Assembly: GCA_964595645.1 (NCBI GenBank)
Contig: CAZQQT010000002.1
Location: 128,001 to 192,000 of the forward strand
DNA: 64,000 nucleotides
Direction: 5' to 3'
DNA from: an uncultured Thermococci archaeon
Lineage (GTDB): Archaea; Methanobacteriota_B; Thermococci; Methanofastidiosales; B48-G16
The position numbers and the translations under genes are program-made. Below, one piece after another: positions 3,385 through 14,383 of the stretch (the stretch's first letter is position 1; each line of letters opens with the position of its first letter). Under the pieces are notes generated by a model. It was not told the origin of the DNA. It did no database searches and saw only the letters and a list, made by a program, of their open reading frames with translations.

Positions 3385-4430
3385 ATATCTATCATCCTCT
3401 TAAGCTGATGCATCATCTCTGCGAATTGATCGGTTGTGAGCGATTGGTTTCCATCACATAGCGCATCAGCGGGTCTGTTGTGTACCTCTACCATGACACC
3501 ATCTGCACCTGCCGCAATAGCGGCCTTTACCAGAGGGATTACAGCACTCCGTTTCCCCGTGGCATGACTCGGGTCAATGATTACGGGGAGGTGGGTGAGT
3601 TCATTGAGTACAGGAACAGCACTGATATCCAGGGTATTTCTTGTTGCAGTCTCAAATGTCTTGATTCCCCGTTCACAAAGTACCACATTCGGGTTTCCTT
3701 GCGACATAATATACTCTGTTGCAAAAAGGAGATCTTTGATCGTGGCATTCATACTTCGTTTTAGGAATATGGGTTTGGACTGTTTTCCTACTTCCTTGAG
3801 GAGGGAGAAATTCTGCATGTTCCTGGCTCCGATCTGTAACATATCGGAGTATTTCTCTACCAAAGGCACATCCCGTGTGTCCATCACCTCTGTGACGATA
3901 GGGAGTCCTGTTTCTTCCCGTGCCTTTTCGAGAAGTTTTAATCCCAGTTCACCCAACCCCTGAAAGGAGTAGGGGGATGTTCGCGGCTTGAATGCGCCGC
4001 CGCGGAGAATTGATGCTCCCTCTTTCTTTACTCGGTGTGCGGTCTCCAGTAACTGCTCTTTGGTCTCAACACTGCAGGGACCGGCAATGACTACTGGTTT
4101 TTCACCTATAGCTATTCCGCCTACATCTATTACCGTCTTTTTGTCTTTAAACTCCCTTCCAGCCAGAATATATCGTTGGGGGGAAAATATCACTTCTTTT
4201 ACTTCCTGCAGCTGTGATATTTTTTTCACGTCGGAAATATTTTTTGCTACAACCACCGGAGCCGAAAACTCTACCGAAAAGACATCAGAACAGGTTTTTT
4301 TCAGCTGTTCCTCTATCTTAGATCGTTGCAATTTCGATAGATTTTTCTTCAGTACAACTGCGTACAATCCCCTGCTTTCTTTTCTCTCCAACTTAATTGT
4401 TTTTAGAGAAGGATGACCAATCGAACTCAT
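3381..4430 (-). CDS. aroF: DAHP synthase type I-beta with N-terminal ACT-like segment; start uncertain (AUG 4430 preferred, has GGAGG SD)
   Basis: [39 protein letters not shown] motifs. Confidence 0.93.
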
Positions 4431-4518
4431 AGTCATCTCCTCCACAATCTACACAGGCCACCTCATCCTGTCCATTGTCGTTTTCACTATTTTCGTTTCC
4501 TTCACTTTTACATTTCAT
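4393..4518 (-). CDS. Leader peptide of the aro operon, 41 aa: [41 protein letters not shown]
   Basis: Manual translation; AGGTGG SD upstream; lies just downstream of BRE/TATA; aromatic codons only at Y30, F32, W34, F37; paralogous to the pheA leader. Confidence 0.8.
4407..4443 (-). promoter_or_regulatory. Hairpin sequestering the DAHPS SD and start region
   Basis: GGAGG-A-GAUGACUA pairs with UGGUCAUC-CUUCU (13 bp including G-U pairs, one bulged A). Confidence 0.7.
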
Positions 4519-4570: not shown

Positions 4571-4640
4571 TGCATTTTTATGTACATGTAGTAGTTCATT
4601 GACTATGTAGATCAATATTCATCAAATTTTCGGACACAGA

Positions 4641-6463: not shown

Positions 6464-6573
6464 TCTTCCCCCCTCCAGAGAGATCCGTCCCTCTTTATCA
6501 CTGACACTCTCAGAAAAGTAATACTCTGTCCTTCACATTGATTCGTCCGGGAACGACTGGAAACAGAAGTCAT
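6454..6573 (-). CDS. Putative 39-aa relay uORF starting inside the pheA leader and ending over the pheA start
   Basis: GGAGGGAG SD then ACT-ATG at 6573; open to TAA within ATGGAGTTAA, a 10-nt overlap with pheA. Confidence 0.45.
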   Translation of the reverse strand: MTSVSSRSRTNQCEGQSITFLRVSVIKRDGSLWRGEEWS

Positions 6574-6649
6574 AGTCGCTCCCTCCGCTATCTCGGCAGC
6601 TTAACATATCATCTCCGCCATCCTCATTTTCTTGTTCTCCATTGTTCAT
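6533..6649 (-). CDS. Leader peptide of pheA-tyrA, 38 aa: MNNGEQENEDGGDDMLSCRDSGGSDYDFCFQSFPDESM
   Basis: Manual translation; AGGTAGGT SD-like site; just downstream of TATA; aromatic codons only at Y26, F28, F30, F33; paralogous to the aro leader. Confidence 0.8.
   Translation of the reverse strand: MNNGEQENEDGGDDMLSCRDSGGSDYDFCFQSFPDESM
6549..6583 (-). promoter_or_regulatory. Hairpin sequestering the internal SD/AUG in the pheA leader
   Basis: GGGAGCGACU pairs with AGUCGUUCCC (10 bp, one G-U). Confidence 0.7.
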
Positions 6650-6827: not shown

Positions 6828-7607
6828 TCAGATATTCTTTGTAGGGAGACTCATTTCTTTGACGTAGGTCGTAACCTTCTCATAACTATGTGTTCTTCTT
6901 ACAATACCACTGCCAACGATTACTCCATCTGCTCCGAGATGAAGTATCTCTCGCACATGAGTGGGATGTGAGATCCCAAATCCTACACAGAGAGGAATGT
7001 CTGTGGCGGCCCGCATTCGTTTCATACATTCATGAACCTCTTGGGAAACTCTGTCCCTTTCACCGGTCACACCTAAAAGTGATACCACGTAAAGGAATCC
7101 TGTGGTAGCCTTTATAATCTTTTTAAGTCGTTTATTTGGGGTGATGGGAGATGCCAAAAATATATTTGCAAATTCATGCTCTCTTGAAAGTGTTATAAGC
7201 TCAGAAGCTTCTTCTGGTGGGAGATCAGCAGCTATCAATCCATCGGCCACCTCTGCGAAATCACTGATGAACTCGTTGATACCGTACTGCAGAATAATGT
7301 TGTAGTATGTCAAGAGTACAATAGGGATATCACGGTTCTTACGGGCCTTTTTTATTACTTTTAAGACCTTTTCCGGCGTTGTGTCGTTTTTTAGAGCTCT
7401 TTGTACTGAATTTTGTATTGTTTTTCCATCTGCTACCGGATCGGAGTGAGGAATACCCAGCTCTATAATATCTGCACCATTTTTTTCGAGAACTTCTATG
7501 AGTTTTACGGTATCTTCCAATGAAGGATCACCACAGGTGATATAGGGAATAAATGCTCTTTGATTTTTTTCCCGCAGTTTTTCGAACGTTGTATTAATGC
7601 TATTCAT
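6828..7607 (-). CDS. trpA: Tryptophan synthase alpha chain
   Basis: [40 protein letters not shown]. Confidence 0.97.
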
Positions 7608-11158: not shown

Positions 11159-11706
11159 TTCCTCACCTTCAAAAAGTTTTTTATTATTTTTTTGCCCTCT
11201 TTCGTGAGAATAGATTCTGGATGAAATTGTAACCCTTCTACAGGATATATTTTATGCCTAACTCCCATAATTTCCCCTTTTTCGGACCGAGCTGTTACAT
11301 AAAGGTCTTTTGGGATCTCAGACACTATTAAAGAATGGTATCTTGTAGCTTCAAATGGGTTAGCTATTCCTTTGTATACACCTTTTCCGTCATGGGAAAT
11401 TAATGATGTTTTTCCATGAACTATTCTTTTTGCTCTTTCTACCTTCCCCCCAAACGCTAAGGCAATAGCCTGATGCCCGAGACAGACGCCGAGTAGGGGA
11501 ACATGTTCCCCATGGTGCTGTATACGTGCCATGATCTCTGGGATACTTTGCGGATGACCCGGGCCTGGACTCACCACAATTTTTGCGTATTTATCGATTC
11601 TGAACTGTTCATCATTTCTTACCACACTTACTGTCGTATACTCGCCGATATACTGGACTAGATTGTAGACAAAGGAATCATAGTTATCGATAACAAGCAC
11701 CGTCAT
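11155..11706 (-). CDS. trpG: Anthranilate synthase component II
   Basis: IDNYDSFVYNL, SPGPG, GVCLGHQ, QFHPES. Confidence 0.96.
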   Translation of the reverse strand: MTVLVIDNYDSFVYNLVQYIGEYTTVSVVRNDEQFRIDKYAKIVVSPGPGHPQSIPEIMARIQHHGEHVPLLGVCLGHQAIALAFGGKVERAKRIVHGKTSLISHDGKGVYKGIANPFEATRYHSLIVSEIPKDLYVTARSEKGEIMGVRHKIYPVEGLQFHPESILTKEGKKIIKNFLKVRK

Positions 11707-13067
11707 TCTAACACCTCGTGAACAGCCTTTTTCATTGCCTCGAGTTTTTTTTCTGTTTCAAAGTACTCTTTCTCAGGGATAGAATCTGCAACAATTCCTG
11801 CACCGGCCTGCATCGTCAACACTCCTTTATTTACAGTGAGGGTCCTTATTGTAATTGCAAAGTCCATGTCACCGTTATATGAAAAATATCCCACACCCCC
11901 TGCGTAGATATCCCGTTTTTCTGGTTCTAATTCCTCGATAATTTCCATGGCTCGTATTTTTGGAGCACCACTTACAGTACCGGCTGGAAATGTTGCCCTG
12001 AAGAGGTCAAAGGCGTCTAGATCTTCACGAAGTATACCAGAAACACTGGAAACTAAATGTTGAACATGACTGTACTTCTCAACAACCATAAAGTCTCCCA
12101 CCGTCACCGATCCGTACTCACAGACCTTTCCGAGATCGTTTCTTCCGAGATCGAGGAGCATTACATGTTCTGCTCGTTCCTTTTCATCTGTCAGCATCTC
12201 TTCTGCAAGCATTGCATCTCTTTCTTCAGTTTTTCCTCTTCTCCGAGTTCCAGCAATAGGCCGTACCCACGCTTTTTTACCCTCTAGCCGCACCAACATT
12301 TCAGGGCTACTTCCCAGTACAAAAAGATCGTCAAAGTGTAGAAAGTACATATAGGGTGAGGGATTGATTTTCCTGAGAGCGCGGTAAAGAAGGAGAGGAT
12401 CACAGTCTACCTCAGCTCTGAGTTTTCGTGAGAGAACGACCTGGAAAATATCCCCTGCGTAGATATACTCCTTGGCTCTTTGCACTATTTTCTCAAATGC
12501 TTTTTTTGAGATAGAGGAATAAAATTTTTTGTGTGTTCCATTAGTAGATAGTATCTTTTTTTCCTTCAACTTTTCTTCAAGACACGCAATTCGTTCCTCC
12601 GCACGGCTGTACGGTTCATGGCTGTCCAATGTAACAAGGATGTATGTCTTCTTGGCGACATGATCGAATACAATACAGTCATCGGTTACCATGAAGAGTG
12701 CATCGGGAATGGCATTCTCTACATTTTCTTTGGGTAGCCTTTCAAACTGCCTCACCATATCATAAGAAACAAACCCCACGATGCCTCCAACGAATCTCGA
12801 TATATTTTTATCTGAGCATGTTTTCTTTTGTACAAACTTTTCCAGAGATTCTATGGACTTATCCTTCAGCGAGATATGTTCCCTGGAGATGCCAAGGAAG
12901 GAGAATCTAGCAGTTTTATCAAACTCCGCACTTTCAAGGAGAAAAGAGTAGGGCTTTTTAATCCTCAAATAGGCTTCTAAAGGTGAAATGTTTAGTTTAA
13001 TCTCCTTAGACAGACATATTTTTTCATAATCTTTTCTTACATCTTCAAATTCTGATCTCGATAACAT
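11703..13067 (-). CDS. trpE: Anthranilate synthase component I
   Basis: LLES, NPSPYM, PIAGTR, KERAEH, FPAGTVSGAPK. Confidence 0.96.
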   Translation of the reverse strand: MLSRSEFEDVRKDYEKICLSKEIKLNISPLEAYLRIKKPYSFLLESAEFDKTARFSFLGISREHISLKDKSIESLEKFVQKKTCSDKNISRFVGGIVGFVSYDMVRQFERLPKENVENAIPDALFMVTDDCIVFDHVAKKTYILVTLDSHEPYSRAEERIACLEEKLKEKKILSTNGTHKKFYSSISKKAFEKIVQRAKEYIYAGDIFQVVLSRKLRAEVDCDPLLLYRALRKINPSPYMYFLHFDDLFVLGSSPEMLVRLEGKKAWVRPIAGTRRRGKTEERDAMLAEEMLTDEKERAEHVMLLDLGRNDLGKVCEYGSVTVGDFMVVEKYSHVQHLVSSVSGILREDLDAFDLFRATFPAGTVSGAPKIRAMEIIEELEPEKRDIYAGGVGYFSYNGDMDFAITIRTLTVNKGVLTMQAGAGIVADSIPEKEYFETEKKLEAMKKAVHEVLE

Positions 13068-13105
13068 AATATCCCCTCCTCCGATAAGAACTCACGCAGA
13101 GTACC

Positions 13106-13171
13106 TTAGAATCGCCACTCCTCTAATAAAGAGAGAAATTCCAGTGTTCCCAGTAGGGGCTTACTCTGCAT
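13106..13171 (-). CDS. Candidate leaderless trp leader peptide MQSKPLLGTLEFLSLLEEWRF
   Basis: ATG lies 29 nt from the first T of TTTATAAA, the expected TSS position; single Trp codon at position 19 of 21. Confidence 0.45.
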   Translation of the reverse strand: MQSKPLLGTLEFLSLLEEWRF

Positions 13172-13176
13172 ACCAT
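13123..13176 (-). CDS. Alternative trp leader peptide MVCRVSPYWEHWNFSLY
   Basis: Two Trp, two Tyr and one Phe in 17 codons; ATG only 24 nt from the TATA start, so it may lie upstream of the TSS. Confidence 0.4.
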   Translation of the reverse strand: MVCRVSPYWEHWNFSLY

Positions 13177-13192
13177 TCCAGAAGAAAGAGCA

Positions 13193-13237
13193 TTTATAAA
13201 CTTTACGCTTTTGTACATGAAAGTATAATATAGTACA
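13193..13237 (-). promoter_or_regulatory. trp operon promoter (BRE CGTAAAG + TTTATAAA) with three TGTACA-like boxes at 10-bp period
   Basis: TGTACA 13212-17, AGTATA 13222-27, AGTACA 13232-37; resembles archaeal TRP boxes. Confidence 0.6.
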
Positions 13238-13396
13238 TCAATTACACTTTATATACCTCAAACTACTATTTATATTAAAGTCGTTGATAGTTCCTTCAGA
13301 TATTTCACACAACACCCATCGAATTCCCTTCTGTACCTTTTCGTTCCATTGCGAAAGATACAAAAATTTAAATAGTTACAGTTACAATAGGTATGT

Positions 13397-13816
13397 TTGA
13401 AGATGAGAGATAAAAACATGGAGTACAAACGAGGAGACCTGAAAAAAATAATAGCTTCCTTAAAGAAAAAACGATTCACAGGAAGTGTACGATTCAATAA
13501 AGGAGAAGCGCTTTTTTCAGAGGGGAACCCTGTATTTTTTATTTACGATCATGAATTGAAGAAAGAAGATGTGGAAAGGTTTAATGAACAATCAAAAACA
13601 CCCTATAAGATAGAAAAACTTGATGAGGAGGAACTTCAATTAAGGATTAAATGGCACAAGCTCATCGATAACATTGAGGAAAAAAGCAGAGAGGAAGTCA
13701 TGGAAGATCTCGGTATACAGGAAGTGGAGAAAAAATATATTGTAAAAATTTTAGAAAGTGAGGATCTTTTATATCTCCTAGAAGAACGTGGTATTGATGC
13801 TTCTACTGAAGAATAA
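13397..13816 (+). CDS. Uncharacterised protein, DUF2226/DUF4388-like
   Basis: DLKKII..LK..RFTG.VRF..GEALF.EG pattern; related to the next gene. Confidence 0.5.
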   Translation: MKMRDKNMEYKRGDLKKIIASLKKKRFTGSVRFNKGEALFSEGNPVFFIYDHELKKEDVERFNEQSKTPYKIEKLDEEELQLRIKWHKLIDNIEEKSREEVMEDLGIQEVEKKYIVKILESEDLLYLLEERGIDASTEE

Positions 13817-14372
13817 CCCGGTAGCTGAGGACCTCAAATCATCGTATATTAAAATAGAGGAACTTATACGTGAGATGAAAGAAAAGAAACTTACAGGATT
13901 CATCGAAGTACAGTTGAAAAAGGATAAAGATGTGCTCCTCTATGAGTCGGGTAAGGTTGTGAAGGTACTACGAATTAACTCTGACGTACAAGTTATCGAC
14001 AAAGATAGTGTGGTCATTGATCTTGTGAAAAAAAGTGCGAAATTTAGTGTCTACAGAATGAAAGCTTCCGTGGTGAGAATGGTTCTTGATTCCGTTGAGA
14101 ACGATCCTGTCTACTCCCATCTCTCAACAGATTTTGTGGATATGAGGAGACTTTTGAGAAAACTTCAGGAGGATGAGTTTAACGGTACAGTGTATGCCTT
14201 GTGGGAAGATGAGACTGAAGGAGCAATTCTCCTCTCGGACGGACTCCCATCAAGTTCAGTGTATCGGAGTAGTGGATTCATTGAGGAGGGAGCTGAAGCA
14301 CTGGAGGAGATAATTCGAAATGCAGGAGGAAAAAATGCAATTTTAACCGTATATCCCGGAAAAAAACAGTAA
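13788..14372 (+). CDS. Uncharacterised protein with two DUF2226-like repeats
   Basis: Two repeats of L.....LL..L....[LF][TN]G....G.ILL..G. Confidence 0.55.
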   Translation: MVLMLLLKNNPVAEDLKSSYIKIEELIREMKEKKLTGFIEVQLKKDKDVLLYESGKVVKVLRINSDVQVIDKDSVVIDLVKKSAKFSVYRMKASVVRMVLDSVENDPVYSHLSTDFVDMRRLLRKLQEDEFNGTVYALWEDETEGAILLSDGLPSSSVYRSSGFIEEGAEALEEIIRNAGGKNAILTVYPGKKQ

Positions 14373-14383
14373 TTTCTTTACAC

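Follow-up and report, generated by a model that had tools for sequence, protein, structure and literature searches.

A putative tryptophan-sensing leaderless ORF, with its start codon in a conserved helix, precedes trpE in an uncultured archaeon of the Methanofastidiosales

We found that trpE of an uncultured archaeon of the order Methanofastidiosales is preceded by a conserved short ORF (leader ORF B) that starts at the predicted 5' end of the transcript. This ORF is probably a Trp-sensing, leaderless leader peptide, on which a ribosome would gauge the tryptophan supply. Its start codon lies in one arm of a conserved helix, P1, and the other arm follows its stop codon. The DNA analyzed is a stretch of 64,000 nucleotides (the window). 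An earlier note on this DNA, written from the letters alone, had described a trpE leader of approximately 105 nt with two overlapping upstream ORFs, and all of the letters that it described are present on the minus strand. Its reading of a structured leader with a Trp-containing short ORF whose ATG is at the predicted transcription start is supported for the ORF that begins at 13171, and this leader is conserved.

The trpE gene (11703..13067, minus strand; ATG at 13067) was identified by a Pfam scan (Anth_synt_I_N and Chorismate_bind). It is the first of seven ORFs placed end to end, down to position 6828, that make up a trpEGDCFBA cluster. In this cluster trpE, trpB and trpA have Pfam support, and the other four genes were named from the usual order and from their size. 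Further downstream are pheA, a prephenate-dehydrogenase gene, and an aro operon. The source genome (G000) comprises 1.97 Mb in 14 contigs, and the stretch was also matched in DNA runs from microbial-mat and brine metagenomes. No RNA run was among the runs that match it, and runs X4 and X6 gave no sequence over it.

A trpE of this type was present in 3 of the 34 genomes of the whole order, and the TrpE relatives P0004-P0007 are 62-74% identical. Outside the three Methanofastidiosia genomes, the nearest relatives of TrpE are bacterial (Acidobacteriota and others; 45-50%), as close as the TrpEs of other archaea. The gene order trpEGDCFBA is the bacterial order; in L006 and L007, from the same class and another order, trpE follows trpD. 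The trp operon may have been acquired horizontally.

We compared four full leader sequences (G000, G001, G007 and X5) from three independent lineages. G001 (locus L002) is of the same genus as G000 and G007 (L003) is of another family; each has a TrpE that is 74% identical to that of G000. These two nearest relatives are MAGs labelled Methanofastidiosia or Methanobacteriota archaeon. X5 is a 330-nt contig from a brine metagenome, approximately 89% identical, whose sequence was rebuilt from a difference table that may omit up to 5 substitutions, most probably from the promoter part. The leader of a 762-nt contig from a mat metagenome, X3, was compared over its first 12 codons. A scan of genome contigs yielded no orthologous leaders beyond the two relatives, and its other matches were bacterial TrpE (approximately 45% identity). 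A scan of metagenome contigs yielded only relatives at 41-53%, all judged to be bacterial by their likeness to the matches of the genome scan. No second copy of the leader was found in the source genome.

Table 1. Features of the trpE leader and of two other leaders in the window, with predicted ribosome positions (leader nt 1 is the A of the ATG at 13171).
Feature	Position in window	Strand	Leader nt	Remarks
Two ATGTAC(W) boxes	13232-13238 and 13212-13218	-		20 nt apart; directly upstream of BRE/TATA
Archaeal-type promoter	13193..13211	-		Purine-rich BRE-like stretch and TATA box TTTATAAA (13200-13193)
ORF A (MVCRV…)	13123..13176	-		17 codons, two Trp codons; rejected as a real element
Leader ORF B	13106..13171	-	starts at 1	21 codons and stop (13108-13106)
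P1 5' arm	13162..13171	-	1-10	Start codon and next seven bases
Pyrimidine tract in leader ORF B	13127..13139	-	33-45	5' strand of inner hairpin P2
Trp codon UGG	13115..13117	-	55-57	Codon 19, three codons before the stop; in 4/4 leaders
P1 3' arm	13094..13103	-	69-78	2 nt after the leader stop (5-6 nt in relatives)
Pyrimidine tract after P1 3' arm	13083..13090	-		GUUCUU / GUUUUU / GUUCUC / GUUUUC; conserved in alignment
trpE Shine-Dalgarno GGAGGAGGGG	13073..13082	-		GGAGG invariant in relatives
Initiating ribosome			1-15/16	Would require a single-stranded P1 5' arm
Ribosome with UGG in A site			40-66	P1 3' arm starts at nt 69-73, so P1 could exist
Ribosome with stop in A site			49-75	Would overlap P1 3' arm
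pheA leader ORF	6533-6649	-		ATG at 6649; ends …SDYDFCFQSFPDESM and stop; cluster YDFCFQSF
aro leader ORF	4393-4518	-		ATG at 4518; aromatic cluster YEFDWSSF near end; own SD, unlike the trpE leader

[quoted passage not shown] The BRE/TATA block is conserved in an alignment of G000, G001 and G007, and in these three genomes the first T of the TATA box is 29-30 nt from the ATG of the leader ORF, with a T at position -1. The X5 and X3 contigs have this arrangement too. The same spacing recurs nearby: in eight other genes of the window a TATA-like box starts 28-31 nt before the ATG, and for this reason leaderless mRNAs look common in the source organism. Judged from the promoter geometry, the transcript would begin with the start codon. 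We infer that transcription starts at this ATG and that the ORF is translated. The two ATGTAC(W) boxes directly upstream of the promoter are both present in G001, the second one as ATGTAT, and suggest an additional transcriptional layer. A palindromic copy of ATGTAC is found upstream of the TATA box of the aro leader, at 4580-4587. The boxes, which we take to resemble the TrpY 'TRP box', are a candidate operator for a transcription factor, possibly common to the trpE and aro leaders. Across the window the ATGTAC motif is not enriched (14 found compared to 14.2 expected).

The leader ORF was conserved in length, in frame, and at its end. From the ATG at 13171 or its counterpart, each of the four full leaders has a frame of exactly 21 codons that has Trp at codon 19 and ends in W-R-(F/L)-stop (MQSK…EEWRF in G000; MQIK…MGWRL, MQTK…NFGWRF and MWSE…SKEWRL in the others). 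The other two frames were interrupted by stops in each of the four leaders, and the probability of the frame staying open by chance in the three relatives is approximately 0.025. The interior of the ORF has diverged to a nearly random level, with an identity of 29-48% between distant pairs, compared to 67-100% over the twelve bases of the tail. The changes within the tail are CGA/CGG, UUC/CUC/UUG, and UAA/UAG, as one would expect if the frame is translated. Codon 19 is the only conserved Trp codon; X5 alone adds a second, at codon 2. The stop of the ORF is 38 nt from the ATG of trpE.

The earlier note had left open which of the two overlapping ORFs was real, and it had named an alignment of orthologous trpE leaders as a check. 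In our alignment the Trp codon at codon 19 was kept in 4/4 leaders, and it is the ORF at 13171, with one Trp codon, that is conserved. ORF A, the two-Trp ORF at 13176, is not: G001 and G007 have no ATG there, and X5 reaches a stop in this frame after 7 codons. The ATG of ORF A is 5 nt upstream of the predicted start of transcription, and ORF A probably lies upstream of the transcription start.

Other explanations were tried and rejected. A pause at a rare CGA or CGG codon does not fit, since these codons are not rare here (7.7 and 6.6 per 1000). A hidden NUG start overlapping the UGG, or a frameshift at a hungry codon, was rejected because the frames differ from genome to genome and only G001 fits. 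In G001 (L002:1453-1500 (+)), there is an ATC at the orthologous start of trpE, with a good SD (GGAGGTGA) 7 nt upstream. The sole canonical in-frame start for trpE in this genome is an ATG that overlaps the leader Trp codon (A-UGG). The -1 frame from 'G GGA UGG' is open into trpE, and the gene caller chose that ATG (P0002, 469 aa).

An apparent upstream ORF in the g3 genus was also rejected as independent support, as it looks like the true N-terminus of TrpE. Two species of another genus of the order have a split trpE (L004:2822-2896 (-) and L005:2822-2896 (-)). Its first part is a run of 24 codons that starts with an ATG, bears a weak resemblance to the N-terminus of TrpE (…WLSKND… compared to MLSRSE / LISKED) and ends in AAC-UAG, and the remainder of TrpE continues in the +1 frame. 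There is no ATG, GTG or TTG in the +1 frame of L004 for more than 66 codons, and substitutions between L004 and L005 are mostly synonymous in the first frame. The split may reflect either +1 recoding at a conserved site or a break that both species share.

We found that a conserved helix joins the start of the leader ORF to the segment after its stop. The 10-bp helix that had been drawn in the earlier note, AUGCAGAGUA (13171-13162) with UACUCUGCGU (13103-13094), is present, and the relatives carry compensatory changes. Pair positions 1-6 of P1 are formed in 4/4 leaders. There are three double compensatory changes, two in X5 (C-G to U-A and A-U to G-C) and one in G007 (G-C to A-U), and a U.G pair is replaced by U-A in three leaders. 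P1 was in the minimum free energy (MFE) fold of G000, G001 and X5, each folded singly. RNAalifold on three sequences did not return P1, and it was therefore scored explicitly. We also took the 52 short ORFs of the same genome that have leaderless promoter geometry and a downstream gene, the trpE leader among them, and scored the duplex of the 5' end with the post-stop segment in each. P1 was the best of the 52 (-14.2 kcal/mol). The other 51 averaged -3.1 +/- 2.05 kcal/mol, with a best of -7.8, making P1 a 5-sigma outlier. The folding energy of the whole leader was unremarkable (z = -0.77 to -1.59), so the signal is P1 alone and not general structure. A search of Rfam gave no family match for the leader. 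Pairing of the P1 3' arm with the SD or the start codon was rejected because it was inconsistent across leaders (-7.2, -7.5, -5.3 and -3.7 kcal/mol).

Among the short ORFs of the genome that have leaderless geometry are MDCCSSVVL, MGFILHQRSHHQR and MYRIRDCFLCA (G000 C1:30623 (-), C13:35967 (-) and C9:77232 (-)). Each precedes a longer ORF, and these three are possible further sensor ORFs.

The predicted positions of ribosomes on the leader relate the Trp codon to P1. A ribosome of Haloferax volcanii protects 27 nt, with its P site 15 nt from the 3' end of the footprint; when it initiates on a leaderless mRNA, nt 1-15/16 are protected (PMC7261190). With these dimensions, a ribosome stalled at the UGG would end 2-6 nt short of the P1 3' arm, and a terminating one would reach into the arm. 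By these positions P1 would be incompatible with the start or the finish of the ORF and compatible with a ribosome waiting at the Trp codon. The predicted positions of P1 and the ribosome thus follow the logic of classical attenuation, and this makes sense of the fixed distance of the Trp codon to the stop and to the P1 arm.

Based on these results we favor, with about even confidence, a model in which the leaderless 21-codon ORF senses charged tRNA-Trp at its UGG, the position of the ribosome sets P1, and P1 is the ON state for trpE. Charged tRNA-Trp would be measured at the sole UGG (codon 19) of an ORF that opens the trp mRNA. Because one arm of P1 contains the start codon and the other is just past the stop, the position of the ribosome would decide whether P1 exists. 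A ribosome waiting at the UGG (about nt 40-66) would leave both arms free, so that P1 forms and no further ribosome loads, and would partly mask the pyrimidine tract at nt 33-45. Once at the stop, the ribosome (about nt 49-75) would overlap the P1 3' arm and uncover the tract, which would then pair with the trpE SD. The pairing of the tract with the SD crosses P1, so the two would be mutually exclusive. When tryptophan is scarce, P1 and a free SD would allow translation of trpE; when it is plentiful, the SD would be transiently sequestered. The ribosome-free ground state is predicted to be ON, which would make the OFF state a kinetic one only. Against the model, the leader has one Trp codon, compared to at least two consecutive cognate codons in the known attenuators to which we compared it.

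Folding lends the proposed output step weak support. The tract at nt 33-45 pairs with the purine run that ends in the UGG (P2) in folds of G000, G001 and X5. The 12-mer that best complements the trpE ribosome-binding site (RBS) starts at nt 34-39 in 4/4 leaders (a stretch of about nt 33-46). The energy of tract:SD pairing was no better than in shuffled ORFs, and in G001 it was weaker than in 95% of the shuffles; only the position of the tract is therefore notable. The energies of P1 and of tract:SD pairing scale together in the four leaders (-14.1/-11.7, -11.4/-10.7, -7.7/-7.6 and -6.1/-8.3 kcal/mol). With a ribosome placed at the stop by constraint folding, the tract:SD helix was in the MFE fold of G000; in G001 it was in the ensemble only (approximately one expected pair). 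Predicted accessibility of the SD hardly shifted between ribosome positions, going from 0.69 to 0.55 in G000 and remaining unchanged in X5, G001 and G007. The G007 leader contains an insert of 45 nt, whose own SD hairpin was predicted in every state.

These results do not bear out the part of the earlier note that called the leader a translational attenuator, as there is almost no change in SD accessibility between ribosome positions. The pairing that it had proposed between CCCCU (13159-13155) and AGGGG (13077-13073) of the SD also failed: the letters are there, and the pairing is unique to G000. In X5 both sides are changed without compensation, and the pairing is absent in G001 and G007. 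X5 retains or strengthens a second proposed pairing, CUCUG (13101-13097) with CGGAG (13083-13079); in G001 this pairing is weak, and G007 lacks it.

Directly after the P1 3' arm, the second pyrimidine tract is predicted to form the 5' strand of a hairpin around the trpE RBS. In a rival reading the states are assigned the opposite way. P1 stacked on the RBS hairpin could be a repressed ground state, with a stalled ribosome and a queued one (nt 13-66) preventing P1 and so turning trpE on. This gives the right polarity without a kinetic trap. The 54 nt from AUG to UGG are exactly two 27-nt footprints, fixed in 4/4 leaders despite the diverged interior, and the P1 3' arm is 0-2 nt from the 5' strand of the RBS hairpin in G000, X5 and G007. 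There is also a precedent in the mycobacterial leaderless Cys sensors, where a stalled ribosome likewise breaks an inhibitory duplex. However, neither of the two ribosomes covers a P1 arm, so the proposed block would be purely steric. In G000 most of the SD stays unpaired in the RBS hairpin (0.69), and the 3' strand of the hairpin is coding sequence so rich in purines that any pyrimidine tract would pair with it. We consider this assignment unlikely.

It is still less likely that the leader is simply a structured 5' UTR, in which the helix protects the 5' end or binds a protein, the frame is incidental, and control by tryptophan is exerted by a regulator at the ATGTAC boxes. P1 is the best-supported element of the leader, and 5'-terminal stems are common stabilizers. 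The ATGTAC boxes at the promoter are conserved as well. The archaeal control of trp genes known so far is transcriptional, by TrpY and Tar (PMC6737238). The Tar consensus was not found at the trpE promoter, and the divergent ORFs beside the promoter gave no family match. A 5' UTR of this kind would leave unexplained why one specific frame is open, its length of 21 codons, the conserved UGG, and a stop codon that changes only to another stop. In addition, the interior, where an aptamer or a protein site would be expected, is not conserved, and the leader has no Rfam match.

The surroundings of the promoter differ among the sequences compared. The approximately 1.1 kb between the CN-hydrolase gene and the trpE promoter (13240-14383) is absent in G001, where the hydrolase gene ends approximately 150 nt before the TATA box. 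In the window, two ORFs of 139 and 194 aa overlap on the plus strand of this segment; both contain similar repeated segments, and neither matched a Pfam or NCBIfam family. The X3 contig is 98% identical over the promoter (13165-13350) and diverges completely right after ATGCAGA, its leader continuing MQTGNLSETPEL…. A second contig from the same run (260 nt) has only an approximately 81% match to the start of trpE. The X3 contigs suggest that a boundary of recombination or divergence lies where the leader ORF starts.

A third alternative reads the W-R-(F/L)-stop tail as an arrest peptide. In a TnaC-like manner, free Trp would hold the ribosome at the stop, P1 would be open and the anti-SD exposed, and trpE would be off. 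Conservation in the peptide is confined to the last three residues and the stop. These vary mostly in their codons (CGA/CGG; UUC/CUC/UUG; UAA/UAG), a hint that the amino acids are under selection, and an arrest would stabilize the OFF state. The conserved features of TnaC are W12, D16 and P24. These residues and spacings are absent from the leader peptide, which has its Trp three residues before the stop and no Pro/Asp pattern. The trp operon is biosynthetic, unlike the catabolic operon of TnaC, and we know of no arrest peptide that represses a biosynthetic operon. Four sequences cannot tell selection on codons from selection on the peptide. We give an arrest of this kind only a slim chance.

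We hold equally little confidence in a self-locking sensor that combines these elements, with a start codon in the P1 arm, a pause at the UGG that reports charged tRNA-Trp, and an arrest at the stop that reports free Trp, within a ribosome-run aromatic regulon that includes aro and pheA. With the start codon in a regulatory helix, each transcript would be read by one or two ribosomes and then close.

A transcription attenuator of the bacterial type, with P1 and the U-rich tract after it as a terminator, is hardly credible: a U/C-rich tract follows the P1 3' arm in 4/4 leaders (U5 in X5), but neither G000 nor G001 has four consecutive U's, the Trp_leader family gives no match, and the polarity is wrong, as P1 would form when the ribosome stalls and the operon would be off under starvation. 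Terminator models and models of positive coupling or reinitiation were rejected on this polarity, because the operon would shut off under starvation.

Two other leaders in the window also have codons that match their pathways. The trpE leader is not homologous to the aro and pheA leaders, as the earlier note had held, and the codon content of the leaders fits the pathway branch. The aro leader (common pathway) has codons for Y, F and W, the pheA leader (Phe/Tyr) has Y and F, and the trp leader has its conserved W. By the endings of the three leaders, each branch of the pathway carries its matching codons.

Sensing of amino acids by ribosomes on leader peptides is a textbook mechanism of bacteria. 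In an incomplete literature search we found no archaeal leader-peptide attenuator; the regulators of archaeal trp genes that we found were the DNA-binding proteins TrpY and Tar. If the favored model is correct, archaea would have evolved leader-peptide logic on their own terms, without an SD for the sensor or a hairpin terminator. The start codon itself would be an arm of the switch, and branch-specific leaders would stand alongside it on the aro and pheA operons. The leader would also be a compact and testable system in which to study archaeal leaderless initiation and the coupling of transcription to translation.

The trpE leader can be compared to several known systems. Unlike riboswitches and T-boxes, it has no conserved aptamer core (29-48% identity in the interior in distant pairs) and no match in Rfam; the Trp_leader and T-box covariance models gave no match even at E <= 10. 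The TrpY (Methanothermobacter) and Tar systems act on the same pathway in related archaea, and the trpE promoter has candidate operator boxes. However, TrpY and Tar are proteins that bind DNA at the promoter, whereas the element described here lies in the transcript. The site bound by Tar of Thermococcus, in archaeal transcriptional control of trp genes, is TGGACA-N8-TGTCCA (PMC6737238). With ermCL and cat the leader would share a ribosome that pauses in the leader ORF and remodels hairpins governing the RBS of the next cistron. In those systems, unlike the trpE leader, a drug causes the pause and the stalled ribosome itself sits directly on one strand of the inhibitory hairpin.

Leaderless leader peptides have been predicted in Deinococcus deserti, including one on the trpEGD mRNA (PMC4007540), and there too the peptide would be encoded at the 5' end of a trp mRNA. 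That system is bacterial, is predicted to act by transcription attenuation, and has no described helix that sequesters the start codon.

Like E. coli trpL, the trpE leader has a short ORF upstream of trpE with Trp and then Arg a few codons before the stop. In both, the position of the ribosome (at the Trp codon or at the stop) would select the folding, and the segment just after the stop is the pivotal strand. Unlike trpL, the trpE leader lacks tandem Trp codons, a GC hairpin followed by a U run, and an SD in front of its ORF; its pivotal strand pairs with the 5' terminus, and its host is an archaeon. Hairpin-dependent termination is not the rule in archaea.

The closest likeness is to the mycobacterial attenuators with leaderless polycysteine sORFs (Ms5788A), in which leaderless sensor ORFs have been demonstrated (Canestrari et al.; bioRxiv 10.1101/834739). 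In both, the sensor ORF is the first cistron of a biosynthetic operon and contains cognate codons; it is at the 5' end of the transcript, as predicted for the trpE leader, and the proposed action of the trpE leader likewise relies on ribosome pausing and RNA pairing with no terminator. The Ms5788A type is bacterial and has at least two consecutive cognate codons, whereas the trpE leader is archaeal and has a single UGG. The Ms5788A type has a demonstrated duplex in which the downstream RBS is hidden and which a stalled ribosome masks, whereas in the trpE leader the helix would sequester the start codon of the sensor itself. The trpE leader is without defining features of both systems: the consecutive cognate codons of both, the terminator of trpL, and the RBS duplex of the Cys type, which here is predicted only. 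By analogy, the trpE leader would work most like the mycobacterial Cys sensor ORFs and, in its positional logic, like trpL.
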